Shown one piece after another: positions 3,048 through 31,915 of a stretch of DNA of 35,353 nt; position 1 is the stretch's first letter; every line of letters starts with the position of its first letter. The notes beneath the pieces are model-generated. The model was not told the DNA's origin. It searched no databases and saw only the letters and a program-made list of their open reading frames with translations. This DNA is from Amoebophrya sp. A120 (taxonomy: Eukaryota > Protista > Dinoflagellata), in NCBI GenBank assembly GCA_905178155.1, contig CAJINV010000004.1, positions 5,231,381-5,266,733 of the forward strand, given 5' to 3'. A program made the translations under genes and the position numbers.

Positions 3048-6000
3048 TCACTCGTCCAGACCCTTTTTCAGAATCCCCATCCCCGTCACCTGGTCGCCCT
3101 TTTTCATACCGGCTATCTGCCCCCGCGCCCCCTGTTCCGAGAGCGGGCGGAAGGGTTCGATTTTCGCCGAGCTGGCCCGGTCGATACCCTTGTTGCGGTC
3201 CCCGCCCTCCCGGCTCACGATCGGCCGCGTGCCCTTTGTGGGGGAATTCTGCCATCTCGTGGTCGTCGTGTCGGGCTCGTAGTCGACTCGCACCTGGCTC
3301 AGTTTACTGCCTCCTCCACCAAAGCCGCTGGTCCGACTCGCGCCGAAACTATTCGCGCCAAAACTGCTGTCCCCGTAGTCTGGCGGAATCGCGGCAGCAG
3401 CGTAAGCGTTCGCCCGGTCCCGGGAGAAGGAGTTTTTGCGATGTCTTCGCGGGCTGCGCCGGGGGGAGGAGGACTGCTTGGGAGAGGCCGCACCGATAGG
3501 ATCTGTGGTAGTGGTTAGAAGATGGCAGTGGCACTTGTTGTCTTCATTCATTTGGACACACTAATTTCTTCGGTCGACGTCGTGACAACAAGTAGTTCGC
3601 TACAGGAAAAACATTTGCAGTCTGATGTTTCTAGAGCAAGAGCAGATGAACGATCAGCTACTGATTCGGAACAATGTTGACCATCATTCTCGCAACAAGA
3701 ACCATGATGAAAAAGATGAAAAACATAAACATACAGAACGAGAGCAACTTTATAGTAATAAGTACATGTCCCCAAGCTAATGAGTTTTCCTCGGATCGCC
3801 GCTGCTTGCCGTGCCCTCGGAGACTCCGCAACGAACTTCTGCACGCGCGACGCCATTTTGAAGTTGGATTCAATGTAAATCAGTACGTTCAAAGCGATAT
3901 GAATTGCAAAAATGTCTGGGTCTGGAAGATTTCTAGATTTGTCATGCATATTTTCCATGACCGATGACGTCTGTGATGCAAGCCGTAGCATCACAGGCTT
4001 TTAGAGACCCTCCTGATGCCTATTTCGCATGAGAAATGCCCTCTCTGCGTAACACAAATTGGACTCCTGTTGCTGGTCATGCAATACAGATTTTTTCGGA
4101 ATTCAAAAACAGCATTACAAGTTGCAAACTTCCAGACCCAGACATTTTTGCATTTGATAAGCGAGGAGAATGACGAGGAACACCCAGCCAAAGGTATCCT
4201 GAGTAAAAACGTACCCACACCAGAGTTGTAATGCAGATTTGCAAAGAGAGGAAGACTTGTAATGCGCATCTCCATGAGAGCCATTTCCAATCGTGTTTTG
4301 GAATTTGTGATGCTGTGAACAGGATGAGCAGATGAATCTGTGACGCGGCTGCACTTGCTAACCTGCACTACACTGCATAGTGCAACTTGTCATGCATGAC
4401 TCACAAAGCTCCTAGGTTTGTGTTGCAAAATCCCCATCCTGACTCTGGTGTGGGTACGTTTTTACTCAGGATAAAAGGTGATAAAACCCTTTGGAATCAC
4501 GGCTTTTTCGCCCTGTCGCGTGTGGTCCCCGTCGATTTCCGCTTGGTCAAACTGGTGCCAGATCACGAACACGAGAAACAGAATACCCCAGGACACGGTG
4601 ACGTAGCGAAGCCGTTTCACGGTGAAGACGCAGGTGTTGCGCTGCAGGCAACCGCCAAATCGCTCCTGATATTTATTTTTCGCGGTGTAGTAGTTGCACG
4701 GATAATGCGCACGATACGGATACGACCACGCCACGAAATAAAAAATGGGCACGAAGGCAGCTGCAAAGGAGACCTTTCTAGAAGAGAATCTGCCTCACCC
4801 TTTGCCAGAAGATATTAAACCGACCAAAACTCAGCAAAATAGTAAAATCTACCACGTTCTTCCAGCCGATAAAATTCAGCACGAAGATTCCGACCATCGA
4901 ACCGGTTACTATCGCCAACGGCACCAGCTCCACAATAATGCAGACAATGAAGGCGATCAGTGCCGCGAGGCCAATAGCGAGTTGGCACCACTGGGATCGT
5001 TCCTTTTTGGTCGACATCCTGTTTTTTTTTTCATGCAGCAGAATTCTGTGTTCAGTTTTCTCGTATGTAATAATGCAGACACGACGGCGCTACCTCTGGG
5101 GGCGGCGGGGGGGGGGTTATTATTCCATCAAAGTTGTCACGAAGATGCACATCTTGAAAAAAACTTATTGTACTGTTGTATTTTCTGCTTCATGTCGTCT
5201 TGGCTTTGGACTGCTTGAAAAAAACCCATGAATTCGTCGAGTTCAATGCGGTTGTTGTGGTTATCGTCGATCTGGAAAAACAGCTTCTCTGTATGCATTG
5301 CAAAAGTAATATCTTCGCAAAACCGCTAGCACTACCAATCGCAATGAAATTTGTCATGCTGCTTCAGGTAAGGAAGGAGATTTGTCATGCGTGATTGCAT
5401 TTAATACGAGTATGCTTAACTTTTGCACGGGATACTCTGCGACGTTCTCCGACATCCGCAGGTTGATGAAACGAATCTGAAAGTAATTTCAGATCATTGG
5501 CAATAAAATTTCTCATGCGGGATAACAATACGCAGGCAAAGCGTGTCATGCGAATATCGCAATACAACGAAGCAATAAAACTATACGATGTTCATCAGGT
5601 CATCCATGGTCAAAAACCCCCTCGCTGCGACGTCGAATTCTTCAAACAACGTTCGCAGATACGCGTCCTGCAAACACGCCCGCTTTTTCAGCCTCTCCCG
5701 GTGGGAGGCTTTTTTGAAAAACTCCTTCCATTCGTTTTCTTCGATCGTTCCCGACCGGTCCTTGTCGATCTGCTGGAAGAGATACGTCACGTCTTTCGTT
5801 GTCATATAGACCTCGAAGAACTCGAAAATCTCCACCACCGTTGGCTCCGACAAACAAGCCGGCCGCTCCGGGTCCGCCGTGCCCTTGTCGCCCGGACCTT
5901 TATTTCGGAGTGGAGAATTGTTGTAGGATTTGGATTTCTTTCTTTTCATGATGCTCGTATTAACTGTGCTAGTGCGACGTGGTGCACGACCCACCAGTGA

Positions 6001-8072
6001 ACGACATTTGTTGAAGATAGAACAAAAGAAGCAGGAGTTTCTTCATTGTTGAGAACGAAACTGTATGCGAGAAAGAAGAAGAACTCGTATCAAATTCAAA
6101 AAAATACGATGCAGTTTTTTGCTTGCGAACTCGCGAAAGACCCTCGTCATGATCTCTTCGCTCGGTGGGGCTTCCTTGTCCTGGTCTTGGAACATTTGCT
6201 TCAGCGCGTCTCTTTCGAGCAAACTTGGCACCATGGACACGAAGGCGTCGATGGAAACTAAAATGTTCTCCCTTTCCTCCTCTTCTTTCCTCGATTTTCG
6301 CTTCATGACGATTCGACTGTCATCGAGGATCTTGACCCCGCTGGTGGTTTCTATCAAATGCAAATATGTCTGGGTCTGGAAGAATGTGAGATCTGTCATG
6401 CAGGTTTTCCATGACCCATGAGGTCTGGCGTGCCATGACAGATTCTGTGAGATCTTTCTCATGCCTGGCCCGCATGAGAAACTTCCTCGCAAAGAAATTG
6501 GTCAAAAGTGGACAGATTTCTGTGGCAACCATGCAACACAGATTTTTTTACAATCCAGACTTAACATGACAAGTTGCAACCTTCCAGATCCAGACATATT
6601 TGCACTGCATAGTTTCCATGTGGATCTTATTCGTGTCCAGGACGCGCATCAAGTCGACGTCGCGCAGAGCGTATCAAGTGCAGAAGTGTGTGGGTCTGGA
6701 AGAGTGTAGACTTGTCATGCAGATTTTCCATGACCCATGAGGTCTGGAATGCCGGACTTAGCATGACAGACTCTGCGAGGTCTCTGCGTCTGCCACGCCT
6801 ATTCTGCATCGGAAACTCCGTTCCAACTTGGTCAAAAGTGGACAGCTGTTGGCACTCATGCAACACAGATTTTTGCATGCTTCAGATTTACCATGACAAG
6901 TTGTAATCTTCCAGACCCGGACATTTTTGCAATTCGTAGAGCGCGCAGGCGGAGGCCGTGCCGTGCGACCGTCTCGAACAGGGTGAAGGCTGATAGTGTT
7001 TTTTTATCAAGGTCGTGTGCAACTGCTGCAAGCTTTGTGAAGATGATGCATCAAGAAAGAGTATGGATATGGAATGGGAATGCAAAAAGCAAATGGAGGA
7101 AGCAGCTTTGTGAAGTAGATGCATAAACCACAATTATGAAAATCCAAAATTGTACTCATTCGTTGCATGTCCATATGCTCGCCTTCTTCCCACTGGACGT
7201 CTCGGTCGAACCATTGTATCAAAGCGCGCGCACTCTTCCGCACCGCGGCAGGATCGGGGCGGCCCCAACTCCCGTCCGACCCTTTTGGGTGCAGCACGGC
7301 CCGCCGATTTAAGTCCATTTTTCCGATCTCCCGCTTGGTAAAACCTTGATGTTCACATGCGTATATAGCATTACAGATTCATAGCTGAAGGAGAGTGATG
7401 ACAAATAATAGTTGATTTCCCATGCAGCCGCAGCGCGTCAGCCCGACAGGAAAACTCTTACAGGCTGTTTTTCGTTTAATCCAGCAAATAAATTGTACCA
7501 AGATCCAGCAAGTCGTCGATGATTTCTTGGTCCTCTATGAGAGATATGACAGTGCACAACTCCCCCTACCCCTCATTTGCCATGCAAAGTACCCAATCCA
7601 CCCCTTGCCCCTTGGCACTGTTTGCATGACAAGTTCTGGTAGCCCAAATAGGACTGCACTCAAGTCCAAATCTGTCATGCTGATGCTTGTACTGCCGTTC
7701 ATGCTATACCTGCAAAAAAGGGAGAGGGCGAGTTGTGCACTGTCATAAGAGCCATCTGCGCGTCGACCGTCTTGTCCTCTTTTGACTTGGTGCTTCCCGT
7801 ATGCACTGCAAAAGTATCGCACTCGTACTAATCTTTGCAGTCGTCATGCATTACAAATCTAGTTGGTTAGCTAAATCCGCATTGCAAATTTCATTTGTAA
7901 TCCTGAGCCAATTTGTATTGCGATTTATACTAGTACGATACTTTTGCGGTGCATATCCCGTGCTCTTGACCGAATTCCTTTTGCTCGCATTGTAGGGTTC
8001 GTCGTGTCTGGGGGGGCGACTGGGCGCGGACTTCGTGGAAGCCCGGCTGTGGTCTCCCGTTAGGGCCGGCAT
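3048..8072 (-). CDS. Multi-exon EF-hand calcium-binding protein with C-terminal transmembrane helices
   Basis: Manual assembly from ATG 8072 (MPALTGDHSR...). EF-hand loops: LFQQIDKDRSGTIEENEW, LFEEFDVAARGFLTMDDL, LFFQIDDNHNNRIELDEF. TM segments: LAIGLAALIAFIVCIIVELV, WGILFLVFVIW, ITFGWVFLVILLALNVLIYI. GT-AG introns 7465-7498, 6990-7155, 5477-5586, 5019-5164; GA-AG introns 7345-7419, 3503-3789; 7 introners. Junctions near 6120-5900 and 4850-4780 are unresolved, so a split into two genes is not excluded. Confidence 0.75.
3898..4159. mobile_element. Introner / MITE-like non-canonical intron, family A
   Basis: 30-bp TIR TATGAATTGCAAAAATGTCTGGGTCTGGAA / TTCCAGACCCAGACATTTTTGCATTTGATA; TSD AGCGA (3893-3897, 4160-4164). 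Removal gives ...VILLA-LNVLIYIES. Confidence 0.93.
4195..4473. mobile_element. Introner, family C
   Basis: Perfect 32-bp TIR TATCCTGAGTAAAAACGTACCCACACCAGAGT; TSD AAAGG (4190-4194, 4474-4478). Removal gives ...KGFITF-GWVFLV. Confidence 0.93.
5292..5434. mobile_element. Introner, diverged family-B-like
   Basis: Imperfect TIR TATGCATTGCAAAAGT / ACTTTTGCACGGGATA; TSD CTCTG (5287-5291, 5435-5439). Removal gives MSENVAE-KLFFQIDD. Confidence 0.85.
6352..6611. mobile_element. Introner, family A
   Basis: TIR TATCAAATGCAAATATGTCTGGGTCTGGAAG / CTTCCAGATCCAGACATATTTGCACTGCATA; TSD GTTTC. Removal gives KIHMET-TSGVK. Confidence 0.92.
6672..6938. mobile_element. Introner, family A
   Basis: TIR TATCAAGTGCAGAAGTGTGTGGGTCTGGAAG / CTTCCAGACCCGGACATTTTTGCAATTCGTA; TSD GAGCG. 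Removal gives GLRLRA-LRDVDL. Confidence 0.9.
7545..7747. mobile_element. Introner, family D
   Basis: 18-bp perfect TIR TATGACAGTGCACAACTC; imperfect TSD AGAGA / AGAGC. Removal gives DAQMAL-IEDQEII. Confidence 0.88.
7800..7955. mobile_element. Introner, family B
   Basis: TIR TATGCACTGCAAAAGTATCG / CGATACTTTTGCGGTGCATA; TSD TCCCG. Removal gives SVKSTG-STKSKED. Confidence 0.92.
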
Positions 8073-9154: not shown

Positions 9155-10447
9155 TTAGTTCTGCAATTTTTCCATGACCGTCCTGACCTTGCTGTTGCCG
9201 TCCTTCGGGTCCTTGCTGATTTTCGCGTCCAACAAAAACAGCTTCGCGAACGTGTCCTGTGCGTGCTCATCCACCGTGGCGCAGTGGGCCTGGATTTGCT
9301 TGGTCAGGTTCAGGGTATCCACCGCTTTCGGCACCCGCTGCGTTTTCTGCTGCTTCTCCTTCTGCGCCCGCGTCAGCCGTTCGTACATCTGCATCTCCCG
9401 CTGCTGCTGGGACAGCTCTTCCAAAGATTCGAGCAAGAGCTGCAGGTTGCGGTCCATGGCCGGGCCCGCGGAGTCCAAATCAAACGCAGCGGTGGACTGG
9501 GCGTCCATTTGAAGCATCAAGGTTTCGACCAACGGGGAACAGTGGACGTAGACCGGGACCTCCTCCAAAAGGTCGGAAGACGGGAAGTCTGCGAAAGGGT
9601 CCGTGTCCTGTCGTGTTTCATAGGGATAGAAGTGAATTTAACATGAACATCGGATAATTGTAATTCTTATTTCGGGTCAATAATTTTTTATCATACACTA
9701 CTACTAGGCGCAAGACGCACAAAGTGGTGTCCAAGTCGTAGTAAATATTCATTCTGCATTCACTTTATCATGCCAAAAGATATCTTCAAAATCATCTTAA
9801 ACTAGTACCTCGTCGATGTTCATGGTGAGTTTTTTGTGCATCGCCGCGTCTGTGAGCCTGTAGGCCTTGAAGCCGCAGGTGCCCACCTTCTGCTTTGCTG
9901 GGTCGTATACCAGAACCACCGCGGACGGGACCTCCTTCTGAAACTGGTACTGGTTCTCAATGAATGCCTCCGTGAGGAAAATACCGTGGTGCGTTGACTC
10001 GTACCTTTGGATAATTTATCATATGATGAGCATCATTTTGTCATGCAGAGACGCGAACTGTAAAAAAGGATGTGATGGTGATAATGCAATACCAATAGAT
10101 ACGCACCACCTTGTAAAATAAATGCAAAAACCTCTATACCATCCAACAGCGTTTGCGTCCCCGCGCACCTCTTCGATAGCCTTCAGAACTCCGTACTGGT
10201 ACTCCAGAAAGTTGTCCGACGGCTCTCCGTCCTGCTTGGTTTTGTAGGAAAAGCAGTTGGTAACCCGCACGTTCTTCCCGTCGTCCAAGCCCAAAAGGGA
10301 TCCGGAAGCACTGTTTGGGTACGTCTGTTTTGCGTGCTTGGCGATTCGGAGGAAGACCTGGGCATCCACTTTCAGGGATAATTTCGTGGACTTCGTCAAC
10401 TGATCGCGCTTCGCGATCGCGGCTTGAGACATCGCGGGGGCCGGCAT
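9155..10447 (-). CDS. EIF3H: Eukaryotic translation initiation factor 3 subunit H (MPN domain)
   Basis: Exons 10447-10140, 10004-9809, 9607-9155 joined by GT-AG introns. Motifs VFLRIAKH...GSLLGLD...VTNCF, DANAVGWYES, IENQYQFQ...AVVLVYDP...FKAYRL, EEVPVYVH.SPLV and LNLTKQIQAHC...FAKLFL are typical of eIF3h. Confidence 0.9.
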
Positions 10448-11552
10448 TTTCAACGTCCTCACAAGGTGATTTTTTCTAGTATTGTAAATTCAAGAAGGCG
10501 CAACAGATAGAAATTTGCAGAAATAAATGAATCCAGAATCGCAATTCAACTTATTTCTCTGAGATGAAAAAAGAGGTGGTCTCTGGTATACAAACAGACA
10601 ACCACGAAAACACAGCACCTGTTTTATGAGAGATAGAGAAATGACAGAAACGTTTTTGCTAATTTGCGTTTGAGACGCTAAGAAATTCTCACCGATAAAA
10701 AATGAATTCGGCAAAGAAATTTACTTATCATCGTACGTATGAAGCATTCTTGGATCTTTCGCAAAAAAGATTGGTGCAACAGCTTATGCCACGAAAATTG
10801 GAATGAACTTGCAATAGCGTCAAATTTCTGATCAAAACAGAGTTTTCATTTTCAAGACCTCGCCAAAAGCTGTAGCTACAGTGCTGATGGCCAAGCCAGG
10901 ACGTAGTCGTTTGACGTCTGATTCTGATACTGATCTCCAGTTTTGCAAGAACCATACAAGCGCAATTTTTAAAAAAACCAATAATTCCGCGACGTGAAGT
11001 GCGCAATAAAAATGGATCTACAGAAGCACTGGCGTGAGTGTAGTACGGCCGAGCAACATACATGCAGGAACATCAATAGAGCGGCGCTTGCGTTCAGGAT
11101 GTTCATTTGCCGAGGCCAGAAATATTTCGCATTTTGGGTGGTATTGGTGTTATTTCCCAATATGTAGTAAGTATCCTGTTTGTTGTAAGTAACTGTTTCG
11201 TTACTCATTTCTTACTTCTTGTTTTGCACAAGATTCCATTCCATTTATTTCTCCTTCCTCATCTTCGATTCGCGACGATCTGCTCTGAGTGAAAATATTC
11301 TATCACTATCCTACAATAAATTCGTGTTTGGTACGACATGGCATATGCATACTTTCCCTTCGTCTCTGTGTGTGTGATTGTGAATACTCAGCACATTGAT
11401 TGACTTGTCTGCGTTCATCTTCTTCTAGCACTTTATCGTCTACTATCTTTGAAGCGGAACTTCAAATTGAAATTAGAATTACCGAAAGAATACAAACGAC
11501 ACTGTTGTTGAAAAAACTTAAACTTGATGAAAAAACCCAAAAATCCCCACCT

Positions 11553-14500
11553 TTACTCACTATCTAGACCCCTTCTACCAAGAAATCCAGGTTCCTGGTG
11601 GTGAAGCTCGGACAACATCGCACCAGGGTGTTGTCCACCTGCCGTGGCGCTAGCGTCTGGCATCATGCCACAAGCGAGAGCGGCCGTTGTGTTATTCATC
11701 CCACTAGCTCCCGCTGCACCAGCCCCGGCCCCTGCACCGGTCGGCGAAGTAGTCTGACCGGTATTGCCACTGCTATTGTTGTTCACGACAGCAATATTTG
11801 TTTTCTCCAGGCTATCGCTCAGCAGCGCAAACATGTCTCGCACATCGTTCACCAGATTTTTCCAGGCAGCCTGTCCTCGCTTGTTATGCGCCGATGAAGT
11901 AGCTGCAGCTCCACCCGCGCCTGCATTCGGACTAGCCAGGTTGCTGCTAATATCCTTGTTAGTACCAACTCCCCGATAATTATGCGCTCCGCCGCCCGGC
12001 GACGACAAGAGCCCTTGGTTATTTTGTCCTCCGACGAGGACAGTCGCGCGCCCGCGATACTCTGATTTCCTTTTCGCTAAGCCCTCTTTCGCCTTCCACA
12101 GGGAAAAATTTTTCAGCTCCGTCACGGTTTTGCGGTTCGCGTAGCTGGTGCCCGAGTTGTTCGGAGAGGTTGGGGGAGGAAAAGTGTCCAAATCGAGCGT
12201 CCCAGGACCGCCGCCGCCCTTGTGTTGATTCGCTTTCGCCAAATGAGACTTTTTATTGCTTCTCGAGTACGAGGTTTTGTTCTTATTGCTTCCATAATTT
12301 GTTCTACTGGCTGCTGCTGCTCCATCAGATTTCGCCTTGCGGATAGCGGAAAGTTTCTGCGAAGCTTGTTGCCCTTGTTCGCCGGGAGAGTGGTCTTCCG
12401 TTCCACCTCCAACCATCATCTGGGTCACGCGCGAGCGCGTGCTGGAGGAAGAAGAAACCGCTTCGGTGACGCGGCGGACCGCCTTCTGTATCTTCGATTT
12501 CCAGGGGGATGGCTTGGTGTTGCTTGGATCATGTCCGTCTGCATTTACAGTGGCTAATCCTGCTTCATGCTTATCCCCACCAGCATCCGAGTCATCGTCG
12601 TGGTCCACATCAATGTTCGCCAAATTGCCAAACCGCAGCGTCTTTTTTGGCTTGTAAACGACCTTCTCTTTATTTTCGTCAGAAGTACTGCGAGGCAGGA
12701 GGTCTTGTTCTCTTCCTGCGGTAGTAGTTGTAGTTGTCTCCCGATTTATTGTCTTCGATGAACTGTTAACACCTGCACTTCTACTGCTTCCATGAGCCTG
12801 CCCTGCATCAAAACCATCTGTAGCTTTTGTCTTCGATCCTTTGGCGCTGCAGCTTGTTGTGCCACCTAGTCCTCCGGTCGTTGTACTAGTAGTAGTTGCC
12901 CTCTTATTATTTCCACGAGCAGGACCTTCGATGACCTTTTCCCGGTCTAGCCGCAACAAATTTTCTTCCTCCGGCACGGGTGCAAAGTACAACACGGTAG
13001 CCTCGGAAAGCCCAGAACAGACCCACTCCGCCCGTTTGACCACGTCCATACGCACTTCGCGGGAATGCGCCACTTGCACGATCTCGCGAACGAGTCCCTG
13101 CTGGAGCAGAACTGTGCGTTTTGATGAATTTGATTTGAAATAAAAGCAATCAGAACTACACTTGCAATACCTTGCTACAACGCACTTGGCGAGAACATGG
13201 TATCTATCTGTATCTTATCACATGATTACAATTACACATAATTTGGAACAACATTTCTACCAGCAGGCAACAACCAATACCTGCCTCTCCCTCTTTGTCA
13301 TTCCCAGACAGGATGCCGATCATGAACAAGACCTCCAGCAAAAACTCGTACCCATGCGTATCCCACGCGAGATAGTAGAACTGCTTCGCGAGCGGCAAAC
13401 TCTTGGCACACAGAGCCCGCCTCGCGTCGCTGTTGAACCCGAGCGACTGCAGGATCTTGGTGAGAGAAAACTCCAGAGGCGGCAGGTCCGGGTCGTGGTG
13501 ATCGACGTTGTATTGCCCCTCGTCGTTACAATCATTTCTCGACATAATTCTTGTTCTTGACACCGCACGACCACCAGGTTCTGTAGTCTCGTCCTGAGTT
13601 TCCTGTGCAAGGAAAATTCCTCCACTAGTTGCATCTCCCTCCTGCGATTCAGGATTTTTCGTTTTCATGCCGGTAACATAGTTCGTAGAGTGCCCCAGAA
13701 CGTGTTGTTTTTTCGAAGATGTTCTTGGACTACTACTGCTCGCGCAATTCTTCCCTGAAAACCGAGGTGCAGGGCTTTTCATCGTAGCAAAATCGAAATC
13801 CCCCTCATCCGGTTTCAAATTTAATACGTGGTCGCCAAATTTTAAACTCGATCCGAACCGAACGAATTGCGCGACAATTCCCTCCGCCAGACAAAAGTCG
13901 GAAAGTTTTCCGCCGCAGCACAACAACCCGGCGAGTGCGTAGGAGGCGCCGGTGGGGAGGGAGCTTAGGAGTACGACCAAGGTTTTCACAAGCTTTTTCT
14001 CTACAACAAGAGCTCCTTCATCTGGGAGAGTTGTATTGTTCTTAGTGGACGAAGAGGACATTGCTCGCGTAGTAGATGGAGTGGTTGCTGCCGTAGTACC
14101 CGTAGATCTCAGCTTCATGGGCTGCAAAAAGTGCTTCGCCCACACGGGCGAGACTAGTTGACCTCCTGTTTTGTTCGGGCACGCGCTCCTGTGGGTGTTA
14201 TTCATTTGCTGCGAAAGCGCGAGGAGGTCTGTTGGCAACAAACTCCCAAGCGCAAAGCACAAACTGCTCGTGACGGTCTTCTTGGTCGTTTTATTTGTAG
14301 CACCAGTTGTCGTGGGGTCTTGGTTTCGTTCATCTTTACTGTTATTCTCAGAAGGCGAGGATGCGGTTGCGGAAGGATCAGAAGTCGTTATCGTTTGCAA
14401 CATATCGTCGAGAGAATTAGTTCCTTCTTCCTCCGTCACCAGGAGAAGCAATTCGACAACCAAACTTAATCCTCCTAGCTCCAGCACCTTCTCGCGAAAC

Positions 14501-17500
14501 CTCGGCGAAGCGCGACTGAACAAAGCCACCGCACGCGCCGCTTCCGCCAGAAGAAAAGACGAATTTTCCGAAGCGAGTGCAGTTAGGGCGAGTTCCGAAG
14601 GTAGTTGTGGTAGAGTACTATACTGCATCCCAGTTGTTCTTTCATCTCTCTCCGCTTTCACATTTATTTCTTCCGGAAGATTGCCTGCCGTGTCGTGGTC
14701 CTCTCGGCGTCCTTGCTTTTTTGCCATTGCCTCCTGCTCATCTCGGCTCGCCGAACTACACGCTAGGTTTGTAGTTTTGGTCATTATCTCCAAAACGCGA
14801 GAAGCTAGATCGTCGCACACACATTCCGCAAACAACGCAGCGTTGTGAATGGTTGCACGGCTGCTGTCCTCGGATTTGTAGTGGAGAAACACTTTTGTTA
14901 AGCAACGCAGCGCCGTTTGTGCCACGATCGGATTTGGATTTGCCTCGTCGGGGAGGTGATTTCTTGTTGTAGTCCCGACTTGCTCCACAAGGGCACGCAC
15001 CAAAACACGAAAGTGCTGCACTGCGTCGTGCAAGAGAGACCGGTAGTGCTTTGCTTCCGCGCCGTTGTTCTGCTGCGTGGTGTTGTTGACCTCTTGATTC
15101 ATTACGACTCCACCTAGAGCTTGTATGCGCACGTCCAAATAAAGTGCGGCCTCAACATCAAGTGTTGAAGTGCCTGAACAAGTTGAATGCGATGTATTAG
15201 TAGATGCCCTCGTTGTTCTGGTAGAAGCGGTCAGATCACTCGGTAAGTAGAAGTTCTCGGCAGAAGAAGATCTTCGCTTAGTGCCAAATCGCCCCAACGC
15301 TAAACACTTCTGGAGACTTCATAAAGACTTTGCAAAAACTTTCGGTGAGCAGGGAAATGCAACACACATCGCGCCCTTACTTGGGCCCGCCGCGCGGTCC
15401 GGAACGCCGCATGGCGTCGGGGCTGCCCGCGCCCCTTGCTTCTTTGGGTTTATGGCCGGGCGCATTTCGGCCAAGAATCCGCTCGGCGCGATTTTTCGCC
15501 GCATGCTACGGCGCGCGGATGTTCGCGCCTGTTTGAGTAGCTCCCAGCCGTCAGCCGTGGCCGGCCCCGTCTCAAGCCCTGCTCGCCCCCACAAGACCCC
15601 CGGCGGCGAAGCCTCACCGGGCGCAACCCCGAATCGGCCGGCTTCATCAGCAAGCGAAGGGCTTTCCAATGGCCAACGGATTCCGGGCCCGCCGCCCTCC
15701 CGGAAAACTTTCGCTGGGCCACGGATTTGGCCAACAACTGCTACCTCCAAAAACGCCAATTTCAGAGGCGGTATAGGAACTAATAAGTGGCCCTTTTTTT
15801 GTGCGGCGGGTCAGCGAAAGTCTTGCGAAAGTTCTCCGGAGACAATCAAGCCCCTCGGCACCGCGATAGGAAAAGCGCGCACTTTTTGCGCCGACCATAG
15901 CATGGGGCGAAAAATCGCGCCCAGCGGATTCTGGCTGTTTCGGAATGCGCGCCATACCATCGCGCGAAAAATCGCGCCCAACGGATTCTGAGGGTAGTTC
16001 TCATTTTTTACATAGTGGGGGCAGGTTTCTGCTGCCCGTTCTGCCTTGTTGTTCTGCCCTTTTGTGTGCTGGCCGTGTGGCCTTTTGTGTGATTTTGCAC
16101 CCGCTACGGAAGCTCTTTCGGAAAAAATTTACCATGCGCGCCGGAAGCCCGAAGTCCACGACCAGCAAAAGTTTTTAAAAAGTCTTTTTGAAGTTCTAGG
16201 GTGTTATAATAGCTGGGGCGATTTGGCAGTAATAGAAGCGGTCAGATCACTCGGTAAGTAGAAGTTCTCGGCAGAAGAAGATCTTCGCTCGGGAAATACT
16301 TTTTCAAAAAACTTTTTTTTTTCGCCACATATGATCTCACGGCACTCCATAGACATACAAGCGGGCACGCGCAGAGTAGATCTGTCTAAGCGAGTAGACG
16401 GCTCTTGGTACTTAGCTAGCTACCTGGGACGCAAAAGAGATGCGGCCGCCGGAGTAGCCGCGGCCTTGGATTCGGTCCGTGGCGCTCTGGCCTCAAGGTA
16501 CTTGACACACAATGCCCCCACCGCGGCCTTTGTGTATGGCGCGGAGGCTCACGGTAAGTCAGCGAAATTCTGAGTGGCTCGCTTAGATGCGGCTGTCTGA
16601 AACGCGCGTGTCCTCTAGGCGTCGCCCGCCCCAGCTTTCGAAGTGCCCCAGTAGACAAATACAGATCAGGCTGAGAACTTCGGCGTCTTTGGGTTTGTTC
16701 CGGGCCAGGTTGATGTACAGATCCCCGTCTTGGCCGAATTCGCGCTGTCACTGTTCCAGCCGCATTCTTGCGAAAGCCGCAAACTTGCGGAAACAAAAAG
16801 CGCGGCCGGGCCCCCCCTTGAGGGGGGGGGTTTGGGGGACCCCCCTTCGTGGAGATATCAATGGGGAGTAGCTCTCGGCAAAGGCCCCAAAAGGGGGGGG
16901 GTTGGGGGACCCCTCGGGGGGGCCCCCGAGGACTTCGACTTGCAGCCGAGGAGGGAACTCTGCTAGCCTCCTGGCAAAACAGGCTGGGGCGAAAAACCGC
17001 ACCCCGAGACCCAGACCCGGAGGAGCGCCGCGGCCCTGGCATCACTGTCGTCAGCGCTGCCGCGTATGGATTTGAATTATTTTGAAGTTGCGCGCGGGCG
17101 CCTGTTTCTCCTGCTGGGGCGTGGGCCTGCTGCTGGCTCCAACCCGCAGCACGTCCGGCCTTGGGCTGCCCGCGTATTGCTTTCATTAAAGCGGCAGCAC
17201 TGCAGGGGTTGGCCTTCCGACATTTACGCCGGCCACGCCGGACCCAAAGCCATGACGCAGTGAGCCCCGAGCGCGGTAATCTTCTTGCCGTCACGCTAGC
17301 GAGCTCAGGATACCACTGCAGACGCTGTTGCCACGCAGTCGATCTTTGCCGGCAAAAAGCCATCTACTCACCGCGACGGGTAATTTATATGTGGCAAAAA
17401 AAAAAAGTTTTCAGAGAAAGTGTTTCCCATTGCCATATACTCGGTATGTTGAAGTTTTCTACTGCAGAAGAAGATCTTCGTATCCAACAAAAAAGCATTA

Positions 17501-20500
17501 GCGTTAGCGTTTTGAAATTTGCTGGCGAAAGCCAAATTTTTCTTGATTCTAGTTAGAGGGGTAGCTCTGTGCAGTTCAGACAGATTCGCGCAAACTGGAA
17601 GCAGTGGAAGCAGTCTCTTCGGCTGCGGAGCGGATTGGAGATAATACCGCCAAAGATGTGGGCGACGGCTCGGCCGCGCGCATGTCTGGGGCTCCACGGA
17701 CTTCCGGCTACGCGACCGCCTGACCATGCGGCGGGCCGACAAGCCGTCCTTCCTGGAGTGCCTCAAGACCTGTATTTCCCTTGCGGCTTTTGCACTCGAG
17801 AAAAGTGATCAATTTTCCAAAAATCTGGCATTAGCGTTTTTGCCCTCGGAGGTCATTTTGACCCCCCGATCAGAGGCAAATTTGCGTGGTCGCAAAAAAA
17901 AACGCTAATAAACTCATGATAGCACCGGGGAAGCTTTCCATTTCTTGGATTCACAAAAAACGCTAATAAACTCATGATAGCACCGTGGAAGCTCTCGCGA
18001 AAAAAAAAAGCGAATTTTTATAAGCTCACCCTTTCTGCACGCTATCCAGAGTTTATTAGCGTTTTTTAGGTGTTGACATAAATTTACACTTTCTGCACGC
18101 TATCATGAGTTTATTAGCGTTTTTTTTGGCGACCACGCAAAGTCGCATGATTTTGACGAGAAATCTTGCCGTTTTTTGTTGGTCCTCCCGAGAACGCTAA
18201 TGAACGCCGGGCCTGAACTCAAACCCGCATTACAATCTGCCGCATTTTCCTTCAAATCAGGCAAAACACCGGCGACCTTGGTCGCGACTCTTTTGCGTGC
18301 CGAGAAGGGCGCGCCAGTTAGGCGCTGCGGAGCATGGAGCTGAAGGGCCTGGCTGTCACATACGGGACCGACGAGGGCTGCTCCGCCAAGCTGCTGCGGC
18401 GGGTGGGGCGCTTGTTTGAATGATATTGGATACTATTCCTTCGTCTGAACGGAAAGTAGCTAACGTGACATGCAAAATCAAAAAAAATTTCGTTTGTTCG
18501 AACAAATCTCAAAACGCTAACGCTAACGCTAACGCTAATAAGACTACTCGGTGAGTTGAAGTTCTCGGCAGAAGAAGATCTTCGCAAAATTTTCATCCGC
18601 GCCAGCATCTGCGCAAAATGTAGGAGCTCGAAGACAATTTGACCTGCTTGGGCTGATAAGCACGAAAAAGGCCTCGGAAGGGGTTGTTGCAGCAGGTTTT
18701 TGGAAGTTTGCTCCGATGCAATTCCCCGCCTCTCCGCATCAGGGCCACACAGAGCGAAAAACCTACCCGCCCTGAAGACATTGGCGCGCGCACTGATATC
18801 AGACACGAGGCTGCTCTGCTGCATTTGGAGAGAGGCCAAGCCGTCTTACAAAGAGCGAAGCAGTAACGAAGGCACTAGAGCAAGTTCGCTACTTTGCTTG
18901 CTCGAATCTCTGATCCGAAAAGCACACCCGTGCCTCCGTGAAGGAAAACCGTAGCGGAGCAAGTTTGCTGGTGATGCATTTTGCTCCGATGGAGACACGG
19001 ATGCGTTTTCCGGATCAGGGATCTGGGCGATGTTTTCCTCGATTTCGTCACCAAAGTTGGGAGCAATGCCCCCAGGCTCGCGTGAGTTGCCCTGATGGAC
19101 CTCTTCAGGTTGTTAGCGGTCCAAAGGCACTCAAGGCCCAGGGCTTCGATCCGAAAAACGCATCGCTGTCTCCATCAGAGCAGATTGGACGAGATCCAAT
19201 GTTGTCCATATACATCTAACAAGAACCTCGAAAAAAAACTGCTCCGATGCGTTTTTTTCTGAAGCGAATCACGATGGAAAAAAATGCATCGGAGCAAAAT
19301 GTCGGATACCCCATTCTTGAACCCCCAAGGACGACCCCCAAAGGCTATTTCCCGGAAGGCCGGCACTTGCCCTCATGGTTGCTCGGATGCAAATCCAAGA
19401 CCTTTGGCTGGCCGTCAACGCATCGGGGCTAGCCGCACTCAAACGGCGCGTGAGGCTCCAAGCAGAACGAAAGCGCCGCCGCCAGAAAGAGAGCCGGGCG
19501 GAGAATGTCAGAGAGGCACTGGGGCAAAACACACTGAAACCAAGCGTAAGAGAAAAACCGGGGCCAGGGTAAAACACAGCCCAGCGTAACGCGCTCTAAT
19601 TCTGGCGCCCAACCGCGAAGGCCACCAATGCCGGCCATAGCGCTAGACTCAGGCCGGTTGAGGTGTCTTGCGGTCAGCCGTCCGAGACGCGCCACAAAAA
19701 ACATTGCAAATTGGCATGCAACAACCCCTGCAGACACACCCTCGGACCCGGTCGGGCGACGGCGTGAGTACCATGCCCGCTGAGAAATTGGCATCGAAGC
19801 ACTCGAAGCTACGGACCGCCAGGGCCGGGGATTTCTATAAGCCAAGGTCCCGGAGGTCCGAAAACAGCCGCAGCATTTATGTGCCAGCCGTGCGTACTCT
19901 CAAGCGCTTCGGGAATCCGAGACACTACCTTTTGCGCAGATGCAGACAGGAATGCATTTTTCAGAGGATTAAACTCGGTAAGTAGAAGTTCTCGGCAGAA
20001 GAAGATCTTCGCGTGGTCCTGCTATGCTGCAGCAGTTTAGCGATCACCAGGTCGGTGTCCGGAGAAACAGGAAAAAAATTAGTATCATCCGGCGACGGTC
20101 GTGCTGGAATTATTGATCCGCATCCGATCGGACGTCGAGTGGGATTATTGATGAGAAGTACCCGCAGTGCGGAAACTACGGAGGCGAGAATTGTATCCGC
20201 TAAATGATCCTCTAGTTTCAACGTGTTCTCCAAGTTTTCAATCGCAAAAACACGGATGCTCGTGTTCATGGCTTGTTGTAGTTCATCTTCTTCGCCTGGA
20301 ATGGATTTTGGTAATTCGCCACTATCAAGAGCAGGACCTCCGTCAACATGTGGAGCTCGGACCACTACTGCGGCTAAAAGTTGCGACAGCAGTTGCGACA
20401 CTGTGCTGATAGAGTTGTTGCAACAGTGAAGAAAACGCTTTTTCATCTCCGCTGTTCTTGGTGTTCTTGCACCTCCTGCTTTCGACAACTCGAGGTCCTG

Positions 20501-23500
20501 CTCGTGCTCTCGCTTGGACTTGGAGGAATTTGAACTACGACCGGCTCCTGCTGGTTGAAAATAAAAATGTGCGCCAGCTTGACCATTTTTATCGCCGCTG
20601 CTCTCCCGCTTTATCGTTGTGCTAGTACTGCTCGTGGTGTAGTAGTCGTCGCGCTTGCCCCTTTCATCTCCTTCTACTTCCATGGCAGAAGTAGATGCTG
20701 CAGGCCCTCCTCCTGGAGCGGTACAGCCACTACTATTCATCGGCATCGGGTCGATATAATCCATTCGCGTTTCCAGTAGCCAGCAGTGCGCCGCACAGAG
20801 GAGTTGCAGAAGGATTGGTGAAGGGGATAAGAAGTGCGGTTGTAGTTCCGGTGCGCCGGACGAAGCTGCATTCAACGGACGAGGGTTGTGTGGCGACTGC
20901 ATCGCTGGTTGTTGTACACCAGCATTATCTGGCAGCTGCTCTAGTACTACTTCATGCGCACTATCTTGTTCAACACCTTGATGATTCGAACTCTTCTTCT
21001 TGACTACTGATTCTTGAACTGCACGGTAGTTTTCCGGTACCGGGCCAAAGCTTTCGAGAAACTCAAGCACGATTTGCAAGAACCAGGCCGGGTGTAGTGG
21101 GTCATTTTCCGTAAGGTAGAAAGGGCCTTTGTTATCGGGGACGGGGAGTTGTGTAGTGCTCTCGCGGGAGAATTCAAGATCACTCTCTGTTAAACGATTT
21201 GCCGCGGTGCTGCTTCTCGAAAATGAATAAATTCCCGGCATCATGGGATGGCTCGCAGTGCCAGATTTATTACTTTCCCGCCCGCTACTGTCGTTCATCC
21301 AGCCGCTGTCACCATTATACAGCGCAGAATTCACTTCATCGCTCCTTTCCTGTTGCAGGGACGAAGTTTCGCGGCTCCAATAGTATGTCTGGCACCGGTG
21401 CAGCGCAATCAGGAGTAGGTCCACCGGAAAGGGCTTCGTCGATGAATTAGTAGAGGCTTGAGTGCTCGAATTATTGCTCTTTCGAGTTGTTGGCAGCGTG
21501 GTTGACGACGAGGCAGATTTTCGCATGTCCTGGCCTGGCGGTCCAGGTCCTATACTACTTCCTTCTGGAGCAGGAGCTGCCAACATAATTTTTAACCCGT
21601 CGCACACCACTTGCTGCACGGCGTATCCAAACCTCCGTTGCAGCCGAGACAAAACGATCAGCAGCGACTGCAGGGCGCGCAGCACGTCTTTTGGGATGAA
21701 AAGATCCTGATTGTAGGATGAAGCCCCCACGCGGTGTTGATCCGGCACAGCGCTTTCGCGATTCGGGAGGGCAGAAGTTGTGCTAGGACCTGTAACAGCA
21801 GCACCGCAGCTCTTACGCTGCTGCTCGGTCAGCGTCAGGTTGCTAATGTTACAACTATTTACGTCGTAGTTCGCACTGGAACCAGAACCATCCATTTTCC
21901 TCGTGCTTCTGCCACTTTTAGAAGAAGTAGCTGTTGATGTTCCCGCTGCGACGATTTTGGAGTTACGTGTAGCTGTTCTACTTCCAATCGCTATCGACGA
22001 AGAGAGCCTCGCTGAAAAGCGCGTCTTCCTGTCGACAACATCAGACCTGTTGATAGTATTACGTTCTTTTTCATCATCGGCCCCGCCGTCGCACAGGAGT
22101 GCACCTAAGCTCACCTCCCCGGTGATTTCTTCCCGGAGCTTTAAAATTGCGACGCAAATCCCCCGGGCAAGCTCTACGGAGGTCGAAGCATCTAGCTGCG
22201 CGACGGCGTCCTCCAAGACGCAAGACGACAGGCGGAACAGCAGGTCGGGGTCGTTGGTCCGCGTTCCGTGGTGCAATAAGTCGGAAAACAGAGGGACGGA
22301 CAACTGCAGCAACTCAAAGTCGTTGCACTGCGCCGCCTTTTCCCACAACAGCAGCAGGGGGTCGCGCAGCGCGGACTCGCAGAGGATATCTGACTGGGCG
22401 AGGTACTCAATCAGGTGCACGAAGGTCTTTCGGTTTTCGGCCAAAAACGCCGTTCCAGACGAGCCCACACGTAGTAAAACGCACCACAGTTTTATCCCAA
22501 GAAAAAAACTTTGAGTCTTAGTGTAGGTCTTGAGGGAAAACATAAACAGCATCATGAAAACTGATTTGCATTTTCTGCATCACAGACTCACTTACACTTA
22601 CACAGTTTTTTTCCAACGATAAATTTCTCCTGCAAACGCAAACCCGAGAGCTGCTCCGCGGACGAAGAATTGTCGGAGTCGGAGGTAGTTTCGGAATCGC
22701 TAGTTTCGCCGAAATTGTTTTTCCTGTCGTTTTCTTCGGAGAAGCTGCTGATATTGTCCTGATCGTCGTGGTTTTGCTGTTTATTTTTGGTACTACTTTT
22801 ATTTGCGAATTCCGCCGCGAGTCTTGCCGGGTCGCGCTTGAAGTTTTGTGAGCTGGCTGCAGAAACTTCCTGCACATTTTGATCGCCATCACTAGAAGGA
22901 CATCCTCCAAAGGCTTCTAGCAACGTCGGAGCCGCTGCTCCTGCTGCAGCAGCTCCATCCATGTAATTGGAGTTCTTCCCTTCGGCTGAGTAGACTCCGT
23001 CCTGCTGCCCTGCGGTAGTTGCAGTAGTACTCATAATTCCAGCCAAAACCACAGAACCGGCACCTGCTCCGGTCGGCGACGTGGCAGGCGATTGCTGACT
23101 TGATGTTGTACCACCTCCTGCACTTTTCAGCGCCGCCACGGGCTGCGCTACGCTCAGGGTCGCCCGGAAGGTGCGCCGCCGCGCCAGGCTTTTGCCGAAC
23201 GCAGTCGTCGTGGCGCTGGCCACCGCGGTATTTTTGTCACCTCCAGCACTTTGCTGGTGTTCGTCGTCGCTGTTCAATTCTCCTTCTTGTTCTTGCCCGT
23301 GCAAGAAATAGTCGGCCGAGTGTTTCAAAAACCCCCGCACCACCTCGCAGAACTCCTTGACGTCCGAAAGAATCGCTGGTGTACGGAGAAACGCCGCGAC
23401 CGAGGGGATTTCGGCCAGCGTGCCCAGCACATGGACCGACTGAATCGCCAAGTCAATTCGGTCCAGCTCCTGCTCGTCGGAGCGAGCGGCGGCATCCTGC

Positions 23501-26500
23501 TCGTTCAGCTGCCTGCTCGTGGTTGATAGTTCTTGCACTACATCCGCGGCCCCACCTTCGTTCAACACCTTGTTCATCTTACAAACCGCCGGCACGAGCT
23601 GCGGAAATTTGCGGCGCAAGTAGCCCTGCGTTCCGCGAACGATTTCGATCAGCGTTTTGGCCGCTGCGCAGAAAAACGCCGGTTCTAGATGGTGCATTTC
23701 GGAATCTAGCAGGTCGAACAGTCGCTGCCAGCTGTCCTGCAAAGACAAGTGGATGTGCGGCAGCTCGGTGTGCTGGAGGGTCAACAGCGTCTCCAATATA
23801 GCGCAGCGAGAGAGAAAGGGCAGCTCTTGGAAGCGAACCGGTAGATTTTGTTCATGATCTCCCTGCACGGACGTGGACGCTGCTGCTGCACTTTGGGATG
23901 AATAAAATTCCTCGGTCAGGAACTTCCGGACCTGCAGAATACACTTCCCCTGCAGGCTCGGCGAGCTGTCGCGAGCCAAGGAGGCGAGGGCGAGCAGACC
24001 CGGCTCGGAGATAATTTTTGAAAACGAAGGTGCTTGTTGGATAAGTAGAGGATCATGTTCTACTTGTTGAACATCTTCAAATAAACCTCCTACGGAATCT
24101 TCGTCTAAATTTTCTTGCCCCCCCGCGGCCTCGGTCGAAGTGTGACGCGCCGCGGCGCCAACAACCAAAGCCTGCGACCCGGTTGGCACCGTCGCCCTGG
24201 ATGATGTTTTCAACAATGGATATGATTCTCGACCACCAGCATCTTCGTTCTCTTCGTCGGCCAGGAGGCTGCTGCGCGGGCTCTCCGACTCGTCACCTTC
24301 TCCGATGATCGACAAGTAGTCCCGAAACCGCGGCGAAGTTCCGTCGTCGGTGGTGCCATTATTGAATTGTTCATCCGCGGAAGAGCTACCTCCATGCGCG
24401 TAGTTGAAATTATTTCCGTCCGTTCGGCCAGCCGCTTTTTTATGCATCTCACCACCAGACACCGTAGAGTTGTTCTTCTCCTCGTGCAATAAGTGGTCTG
24501 ATTCCAGATGCGACTCTTGATCTTTGGCCAGCTGCACGAAGCCTTTGCTACCAGCTCCTCCGTACCTCTTTCGAAACGCGTCTATCCTGGGTGCCAATCG
24601 GCTCCAGAGGTGGTGCTCGATGTCCGCGGGAGGGACATGGGAGAAACAGGCCTTCGCCCAGTCGATGTGATTACCCCGGGCCAGGGTCCACAGCGCCAGG
24701 ACCGCCATTTTGCGGACCTGCGTGGTTGGGCTGTTTGTTAAGAGGAGAAGCACGGATATCGGCTCCAGGTGTCCGAGCCAATTTTCAAACAGCGATGAAG
24801 AAGATCCACTCGACCACGTGCCGACGACGTGGTGGGACGAAATCATTTGCGTCGAGGTAGGAGACATCTTCACGGGTCCTGAACAAGAAGATGTGCTGGA
24901 AGTCAGAAGTCCACTGTTATCCCACGAGGTCGTGGGACCTACGACACCGATGCTGTTCTTGTTTCCACTACATGATCCATTCGTCATGTGCTTGGTTCCA
25001 AAAACACCTCGCCGGGTCGTTCTTGTTCCACAAGCTCCTGGTCCTGCTGCGGTCGTAGTAGTCGTAGCAGCTGTTGAACTACCGTTGCTGCTCACCAGCG
25101 CCAGCTGCAGCAAACATTCCACACACAGTTGCTGCACCTCCGCGGTTATCCTGTGCAAAAGTATCGTACTCGTATAAATGCAGGTCTTGCATTACAAATT
25201 TCTTTGTCAAGGCAAATCAGCATTACAAATTTCATTTCTCATGCTGAGAAAATTTGTAATGCATTTATACGAGTACGATACTTTTGCAGTTCATAGCGGT
25301 GGCCGTGGGCGCGAGCAGAACCAGGGCGTCGACGCCGCGGTGCTGGACGCACTATTACATTGAAAAATGCCCCCACCCCCGACCTTGGGAGAATTTGTAT
25401 TGCAAACCTTTCCAAATGAAACCCTCACCCTCTTGCATCTATCAGCATCACAGGTTTCCAATCGTGAACAGCAAGAATGTATTGTATTACAAAAGACCCC
25501 AGCAAAAGCGGCGCTTGTCATGCAAGCGATGCGATACACGCCTAGACCCTGCATCGGAAAGATTCATACTCCTTTCATGCATGACAAAACGTCTTCATTT
25601 GGAAACTTCGCATCACAAATTTTTACAATTTAAGGGGTGGGGGGCATTTTTCACTGTAATACGCACTCCTGGTTATCCAGGAGGAACAGGGAATGCAACA
25701 GGAACAACGCGTCCCGCTGCTCTTCCTCGGTCCCGGTTGCGGCGGCGTGGAGCAAGGGCGGATACTTGTTCGCTGAGGGCGACAGGGACGGCGAAGCAGC
25801 AGTCTTGGTGACACTGCCGTCAACTGTTCCTGGTGATGTGGCTATACCTGCTGATGAGGATGCTGTAGTTGTACTGAGACTTTTTTTACTACTGCTCCTT
25901 CCAGCTGCCGTCTCGCTTGAAGTACTCCGTGGAGGTGCACCAGCAACGTGTTGCCCAGAATGGACGTCCCCATCAAGTCGGTGCAGAAACGTGTGCGTCG
26001 CGTGCTCGCGAATTTCGTTTCTGAGCAGAAATTGGCCGACAAAAGCCTCGAGCTCGCCGTCGTTTCGCCGGCTCGCGAAGGTGCCAGAACCTGTGCCCGC
26101 ATGATGATCCTGGGTACCCGCCCACTGCGAAAAGGCCAGATCGATGATGTTCGCGATTTCTGGATGGGGTTGGCTTAAAACAAAACTGGGGCTAGAAGTT
26201 CTTGATGTCGTACTGCTGTCGATGGCAACTACATCCTGTTGAGAATTATTGCCCCCTCCAGCTGCCTTGTTGCCCGCGCTGTTCCTGCTTGATGCTGTTC
26301 CAGAAGCTTTGGTTCCTCCTGAAGTACCATTTCCCCCGGTCGCATAACTTTCACCGGCGCTAGTTTCTGACGCAGGTGCACTTGATGATGATGTTGCTCC
26401 GGCACTACTATTGTTGAGGGCACTTCTAGTACCTCCGCTTGCTCGTGAAGTTGGTCCAGAAGAACTGCTACAAGAACCTCCTCCACTCGGAGCTCCTGCA

Positions 26501-31328: not shown

Positions 31329-31856
31329 TGTTGGTCATGGAAATCGATCCCGCACACACGTAACACGATCGCCCCAAATGACGCCTGCTCCTCAATGAAA
31401 TGACAGTTCTGAATGACCTGAACTAGCTAGATCCTTAGGGAAATGGTCAGAATCTATCTAGATCCTGAAGGAAACTCGTCACCATGTTCCGCGAATCCCC
31501 CAAATACTACGAAGGCAAAGCCATCAGGATCGTAGTGAAATGAATGGACTCAGCTCGGTCCAGACGTTCGGAATGGTCGCCCTGGGGGACTTGACTCCCG
31601 CCAGGGTCGAGCACCAATCTGAGCAGGTTGAGGAGTGGACTCCCATGCTGTTTGGCCACTTGACTCTGACCAGGTTTGGTCCATATGAATGTGATGAATT
31701 TGGATGAATTGAACCTACAGGATGTAACGCAGCAAGAGACTTGCGTCACTTGCTTGCTTACTTGCAATTGAGAGAATTCGTCGAACTGCTGTTGATAACG
31801 AGCTCAGTGGAGCAAACGTGTGTAAGTGTGTGCGAGTGTTCTCAAGTCCACTAACA
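31329..31856 (+). repeat. Putative 5' LTR
   Basis: Begins TGTTGGT and ends ACTAACA (6/7 inverted match, TG...CA), 60 bp before the gag ATG. The 3' LTR is outside the window, so this is unverified; no clear TGG-type PBS. Confidence 0.45.
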
Positions 31857-31915
31857 CTACGTTACGCCTTGAGACTCAAACTGGCTCTTCTAGTCAGATA
31901 AGTTTATTTGAAATA

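Follow-up and report, generated by a model that had tools for sequence, protein, structure and literature searches.

How does one short piece of exon come to be repeated within a gene, with each copy parted from the next by an unrelated element? A locus of the marine parasitic dinoflagellate Amoebophrya sp. A120 raises this question. In the 35,353-nt stretch of DNA that we analysed (the window), four 1-1.4-kb elements alternate with 40-57-bp copies of one exon piece (Table 1). The elements, cassettes 1-4, have no blastn similarity to one another or to the rest of the window, and each carries its own inverted ends. The inserts are 955-1,387 bp long and the exon copies 56, ~42, ~45 and 40 bp; the shared 40-bp core recurs in degenerate form at 17439, with 2 mismatches at 18546 and exactly at 19973. 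All four left junctions fall within ~2 bp of one host position. The right junctions differ, lying 16, 0, ~5 and 0 bp to the left of the core. The exact 26-nt core was absent from the metagenome contigs searched.

Table 1 Features of the array and the adjoining host exons (positions in the window).
Feature	Position	Strand	Remarks
Downstream host exon	13281..15272	-	array left out of public model P0001, whose start is at 15102
Duplication copy 1 (56 bp)	15222..15277	-	5' boundary of the large exon downstream; transcript continues from 15272
Cassette 1, 955-bp single-copy element, TTA...TAA ends	15278..16232	.	TIR, depth, long hairpin
Intron 1 as spliced, 960 nt (element + 5)	15273..16232, equally 15274-16233	-	non-GT-AG
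Duplication copy 2, 58-nt micro-exon	16233..16290 (16233-16288 = copy 1)	-	sequence identity, splice joints
Cassette 2 / intron 2, 1,148 nt, multi-copy TIR family	16291..17438	-	left end ~8-9 bp short
Copy 3, degenerate, in-frame 3-bp insertion	17439..17480	-	38-nt micro-exon 17439-17476
Cassette 3, 1,060-bp TA...TA, asymmetric ends	17481..18540	.	intron 3 = 17477-18541 (element + 5)
Copy 4, 2 core mismatches	18541..18585	-	30-nt micro-exon 18542-18571
Cassette 4, multi-copy TIR family	18586..19972	.	left end ~8-10 bp short
Intron 4, 1,400 nt	18572-19971, may slide 2	-	splice joint
Copy 5, 40 bp = core of copy 1	19973..20012	-	3' edge of large upstream exon
Upstream host exon	19972..22492	-	in frame with downstream exon over all four splices

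The host gene lies on the minus strand. P0001, a model labelled Amoebophrya sp. A120, is matched at 100% by the exon adjoining the array on its left and by the exon that follows. By its open reading frames, the stretch from 11556 to 29587 reads as one very long gene, with ORF blocks of 457-865 aa that stay in frame through the array. This gene appears to be split in the public annotation, P0001 being the part from 15102 down. Its sole Pfam signal is a sub-threshold ARM-type match; no Pfam family above the cut-off, and no transposase or Cas1 family, was found in the 11 window ORFs. A search among longer proteins returned no match for the upstream exon or for the exon at 10.1-10.4 kb (weak evidence). 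The tested exon of the minus-strand gene at 9162-10448, which we take to resemble eIF3 subunit H, had no Pfam or homolog match. By eye, 31826-35353 is retrotransposon-like, with a CCHC knuckle frame followed by broken protease/integrase-like frames; the two frames tested there had no Pfam match.

Cassette 1 is the clearest case. The first-pass annotation had described identical 56-bp flanks abutting its TIR ends and including 16 bp of host exon beyond the core. Letter-by-letter comparison agrees: 15222-15277 and 16233-16288 are the same at 56/56 bp, the first 16 of which are host exon outside the core. The identity has no leftward extension and extends rightward by 1 base (T at 15278/16289), giving 57 bp on that reading. 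Within the TIR, 17/18 inverted positions match, a level at which 0/200,000 random window pairs reached even 16, and the inverted match runs for ~65 bp at 80% (E 9e-9). Intron 1 is predicted to fold into a long hairpin closed by its ends, with the stem present in both MFE and centroid structures (z -6.17, 20 shuffles). The cassette begins with TTA at both ends, without two purines next, and across 49 boundary pairs the best 5-bp direct-repeat match is 2/5. The 236-aa frame inside it has no Pfam match, and no Rfam match came near its gathering score; the Rfam matches that we discarded were hairpin-driven and far under their gathering scores.

Read depth in X1, a public DNA run that may be the source of the assembly, speaks to copy number. 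A single 1,014-bp contig (15249-16262) spans both cassette 1 junctions at a depth of 43.1, and the flanking exons stand at 43.0 and 41.9. The shared duplicate has a depth of 95-99 (~2x) and the 40-bp core one of 142 (~3x). Depth inside cassette 1 is flat at 43.1 with 80% likeness allowed, so the element has no sibling; elsewhere in the contigs, its only matches are 54 bp (terminal) and 36 bp (internal). Because the 56-mer stands at about twice flank depth and the element is single-copy, the 56-mer is host-derived and present twice; it does not belong to the element, nor is it artefactual. These depths bear out the earlier proposal that the duplicate originates at this locus. Likewise, X1 gave no sign of the 56-mer as an element part in other copies: the lone related TIR end, 54 bp in one other contig, has an unrelated flank. 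Cassette 1 is fixed in the X1 sample. A relative of its right TIR end (16180-16233) occurs in a single-copy 612-bp contig of X1, X3 and X4 (DNA depth 45.9). In two RNA-type runs from one sample this contig reaches a depth of ~420, and it is absent from X5; it may represent an element that is expressed, or a transcript whose end lies at a TIR.

The families of cassettes 2 and 4 are multi-copy and include relatives at 97-98%. The unique parts of cassette 3 and the contig at the copy-4 junction are single-copy (depth 38-46 versus 42-43). Inside cassette 3, positions 17881-18141 form a 261-bp foldback with tandem 42-48-bp motifs, and at its right end there is a 6-bp unit repeated 4.3 times. The right ends look whole in 4/4 cassettes. 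The left ends of cassettes 2 and 4 are without ~8-10 bp present in other family copies, a truncation defined by the consensus of loose ends from 2-3 contigs; for cassette 2 the agreement is 0.69, and the shortfall is measured against its own right end and other copies. At the cassette 4 junction there is a 2-bp GC overlap. We had considered trimmed left ends in all three older cassettes and dropped this for cassette 3, whose left end matches the A120 start motif and may be intact. Another copy of the cassette 4 family, at a loose end in X1, is preceded by the same 8-mer as at 18586, at the same 3-bp distance; this match was found post hoc in 1/3 flanks. The small introners show no such 8-mer preference (1/146).

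Transcripts cross the whole array. The runs X3, X4 and X5, from two samples of one study and labelled RNA-type by a software guess, have contigs that join across other introns and provide no cover inside cassette 1. The joint 15272->16233 was found in X3 and X5, and the same join in X4 (960 nt skipped, 1 base ambiguous); this copy-to-copy join, present in all three runs, requires both copies. Three joints, 16290->17439, 17476->18542 and 18571->19972, occur in one 131-bp X3 contig; the lengths of its four pieces add up to 131, which leaves no letters between them. No splice joint was seen in the DNA contigs. GT-AG ends are absent at all four introns, with either placement of intron 1, for which 954 nt had been expected from sequence and 960 nt were observed. 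An assembly artefact, in which different alleles were strung together, is scarcely credible: X1 may be the assembly source and no listed piece covers the whole array, but single-copy depth holds for cassette 1, for the unique sequence within cassette 3 and for the contig at the copy-4 junction, and one RNA-type contig passes copies 2, 3, 4 and 5 in order. The array is real and functional at the RNA level.

Splicing of cassette 1 removes the element plus 5 nt and retains 51 nt (17 codons) of the duplicate. The net gains for cassettes 1-4 are 51, 42, 42 and 27 nt, all multiples of three, an outcome expected by chance in 1 of 81 cases. After splicing, an open frame of 1,592 codons runs across all four joints, and the protein is predicted to carry five copies of an RRSSSAENFYLPS-like peptide. 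Joining copy 5 directly to copy 1 yields one open frame with a single RRSSSAENFYLPS, presumably the empty allele. Among the matches listed from 150 wild-relative loci, none is a homolog of cassettes 1-4 or of 13.0-22.6 kb, so these loci hold no empty ortholog. Transcript contigs drop rare forms, and out-of-frame splicing may thus also occur. In cassettes 1 and 3, whose left ends appear whole, the intron is exactly element + 5, and both fit cuts placed 1 nt beyond the 5' end and 4 nt beyond the 3' end; cassettes 2 and 4 depart from this. Within each of the four cassettes the two ends pair, and the direct repeat is dispensable for splicing. What is new here is that the spliced cassettes leave most of each exon copy in the transcript, in frame.

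To place these duplications, we compared them with ordinary introners. The window holds eleven small TA...TA introners of 149-309 bp (3898-7955 and 25147-30560), 9/11 of which have exact 5-bp duplications, and their families are shared with a wild relative at ~70-94%. Their motif was absent from the viral contigs searched. A terminal-motif scan covered at least 161 stretches from 150 wild-relative loci, merged into 137 sequences (605,536 nt). Among the matches listed, 141/194 de-duplicated elements had an exact 5-bp repeat, 29 matched at 4 of 5 bp, 23 at less, and 1 had a long flush duplication; boundaries were picked to maximise the 5-bp match, which favours the class of 5-bp repeats. Published A120 TSD calls are 2-11 bp in 56/58 rows of the table consulted (PMC12130899), and in 12/14 supplement files of that paper neither the gene id nor any of three short element motifs occurs. 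In a flank-overlap null of 400 mismatched pairs, the 99th percentile was 4 and the maximum 83, the latter probably reflecting neighbouring elements with a common exon between them.

The single long case (L067:11681-12146) is a 312-bp introner between 77-bp copies (70/75 aligned positions match) in a coding frame. Both of its ends are intact, the last 2 bp mismatch, and removal of element + 5 would leave 72 nt in frame, with the frame open in 3/4 cut placements. Most of its 13 listed relatives have, by eye, matching 5-bp repeats, so the family is a normal one in which this long duplication stands out; a 72-bp tandem repeat with a decayed TSD is a weaker alternative. A long duplication is thus a rare introner outcome (~0.5% among the matches listed) yet occurs in 4/4 cassettes of the array, and four rare events at one site point to a hotspot. 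Several other candidates were set aside: two (L054:5090-5720 and L007:13216-13820) are ordinary introners inside 170-180-bp coding tandem duplications, and six (L003, L052, L059, L062, L066 and L067:4159) lack a flush TIR. A further wild-relative locus (L064:10631-12130) has three 46-50-bp copies with two unrelated inserts (516 and 838 bp) between them; local fragments are scrambled at one of the junctions, and clear TIRs are lacking. It looks like a repair-made insertion with a long duplication.

Cassette 1 had been proposed as the most recent addition. Its exactly matching flanks and undamaged ends make this plausible, but copy 5 matches just as exactly over 40 bp. Copies 3 and 4 have a common A>T change that is absent from copies 1, 2 and 5, and cassette 1 is without a close relative, whereas cassettes 2 and 4 have relatives at 97-98%; these points weigh against cassette 1 as the last arrival. 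The suggestion of Cas1-type integration fared worse, as the 11 ORFs hold no Cas1 family and both copy and insert lengths vary. Nor is there a polar age gradient along the array: copies 1, 2 and 5 are identical, and 3 and 4 have diverged.

How, then, did the duplications arise? The reading that we rank first, and on which we are evenly poised, is that a transposase joined one end of each element, and host copy-and-repair, acting at a site used before, joined the other. Cassette 1 is a non-coding TIR element that is removed as a non-canonical intron; its opposite ends would have been joined in these two ways, leaving the 56-bp exon duplicate. Repair synthesis may have run through 40-57 bp a second time until it met a break or target site, itself used again, where the resident element begins or ends. 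The terminal hairpin, rather than a direct repeat, would set the cut sites; the element + 5 that is spliced out is the length that erases an ordinary 5-bp duplication. The survivors would be events that left a multiple of three in a low-complexity, Ser/Thr-rich stretch, and the array may have persisted under selection because of in-frame splicing. By analogy, the combination of one clean end, one truncated end and a long duplication in cassettes 2 and 4 would fit one-ended integration. Homology-dependent repair, also put forward at first pass, fits these trimmed cassettes too, but does not discriminate at cassette 1, which is intact. There, both ends are intact with an overlap of at most 1 bp, so two distant transposase cuts or recombination fit equally well, and the truncation of cassettes 2 and 4 could have occurred after insertion rather than during it.

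If the transposase made both junctions in one event, its strand transfers lying ~56 bp apart and the gaps being filled afterwards, one would expect intact ends that directly abut the duplication, as in cassette 1 and in the 77-bp case. There are bacterial precedents in IS1549 and IS1634, which make variable repeats of 8-514 bp by a route left unexplained in the account cited (PMC2266710), and the cassette 4 relative with the same 8-mer at the same offset hints at a target preference. We nevertheless consider such a wide stagger unlikely, given the exactly 5-bp repeats of most ordinary introners among the matches listed, the short published A120 TSDs, the shortening of cassettes 2 and 4 on the left, which it does not predict, and the lack of a transposase or Cas1 family in the 11 window ORFs. 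Recombination would act differently. An exchange within same-family insertions D bp apart, arising by a local hop or in two alleles with a 5-bp TSD each, would connect one insertion's left flank to the other's right flank and create a duplication of D+5, and unequal exchange between repeat copies would join the array. Both ends would then stay intact, and the element + 5 splice would leave a net gain of D, as in cassettes 1 and 3; the A>T change common to copies 3 and 4 fits the joining of two two-element alleles better than it fits strictly one-sided growth, and alternative transposition gives tandem duplications in maize in the work cited (PMC3744419). It is still doubtful in our view, as it requires repeated local hops of four unrelated families at one 60-bp site and leaves the trimmed ends unaccounted for, and no partial allele is visible, cassette 1 depth being equal to flank depth.

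A coding tandem repeat might instead have come first, with ordinary introners landing later at its junctions. The wild relative does have ordinary 5-bp insertions in coding tandem repeats (L054 and L007), and one of the 49 boundary pairs tried at cassette 2 gives a 5/5 repeat, but such a match is expected in ~1/5 of four-cassette scans, and cassette 1 reaches no more than the 2/5 given above. The five bases removed with cassette 1 continue the host sequence, so its duplication is 56 bp and not 51 plus a TSD. Four landings precisely on four junctions are also very unlikely, and we regard this order of events as highly improbable. None of the models alone accounts for four rare events at one site. 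More speculatively, and with less confidence than any mechanism above save a pre-existing repeat, array-building may be anchored to the site: a short target motif, or else the end of the element already in place, would steer different families to one position, and with every insertion 40-57 bp of exon would be copied anew, the copies becoming in-frame micro-exons through hairpin-measured splicing.

These results bear on how tens of thousands of non-GT-AG introns are removed in Amoebophrya. Published intron borders are blurred because a direct repeat of 3-5 nt makes the cut ambiguous. In long-duplication insertions the two sides differ in sequence, which lets the cut be located with nearly single-base precision, and a genome-wide set of them would serve as a direct ruler for the splicing machinery. 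Introners may also create exons and tandem peptide repeats instead of restoring the gene. Insertions that likely went wrong at one end would add a repeated peptide rather than destroy the gene, a route relevant to the fast protein evolution of these parasites.

Among known systems, the closest are the introners of Amoebophrya strains A25 and A120, described in the published sections consulted as having TTA or TAT inverted-repeat ends, a hairpin, no GT-AG and no transposase inside, and as being spliced. Their direct repeats are 3-5 nt (survey range 3-8), and they were called by an inverted repeat of 8-20 nt starting with TAT (A120) or TTA plus two purines (A25) (PMC7789003). Cassette 1 resembles them as an RNA-supported non-GT-AG intron whose ends are joined by a TIR hairpin. 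It differs in being single-copy and ~4x the mean A120 length, and the array differs in its 40-57-bp repeats, mostly kept in the mRNA, and its four unrelated stacked elements. As cassette 1 lacks both the 3-5-nt repeat and a repeated family, we class it as an introner-like variant and not as a member. A120 elements with TA ends and a 5-bp TSD have been likened to integrase-related Ginger elements in the text consulted (PMC12130899). In the literature searched (titles and abstract openings, mostly outside subscription journals), we found no long-duplication introners or stacked introner arrays.

In other lineages, again from the published portions consulted, Aureococcus sp. introners add codons (+12 bp; PMC9860276), Polarella ILE classes have 3-8-nt TSDs (10.1101/2020.10.14.339549), and Euglena non-conventional introns follow hairpin-adjacent spacing rules (PMC12501133). 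As in Aureococcus and Polarella, part of the target duplication ends in the protein; the gains there are of few codons, family-fixed and at canonical sites, whereas those of the array are of 9-17 codons, event-specific, non-canonical and made four times. Aberrant one-ended retroviral integration is described as leaving one clean end, another that is often truncated, and a duplication far longer than the normal 5 bp; unlike the array, the cases reported are experimental, drug- or mutation-induced, usually hundreds to thousands of bp long, not site-recurrent and unspliced (PMC5041404). IS1549 and IS1634 share with cassette 1 a TIR element flush with a long, variable duplication (PMC2266710, in the part consulted), but they are bacterial and autonomous and long repeats are their rule, whereas 5 bp is the rule for the countable introners here. 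Like a MITE, cassette 1 is without coding capacity; unlike one, it has no short TSD and no high copy number.

CRISPR arrays, which are grown by Cas1-Cas2, have repeats of constant length and short, uniform spacers. The array described here departs from them in its 1-1.4-kb TIR inserts, variable repeats and coding micro-exons, and no leader or cas gene was found in it. It resembles them in alternating host-sequence copies with unrelated inserts and in having one fixed edge. If array-building were indeed anchored to the site, the locus would represent a eukaryotic, CRISPR-like record of sequential insertion that also grows protein repeats.
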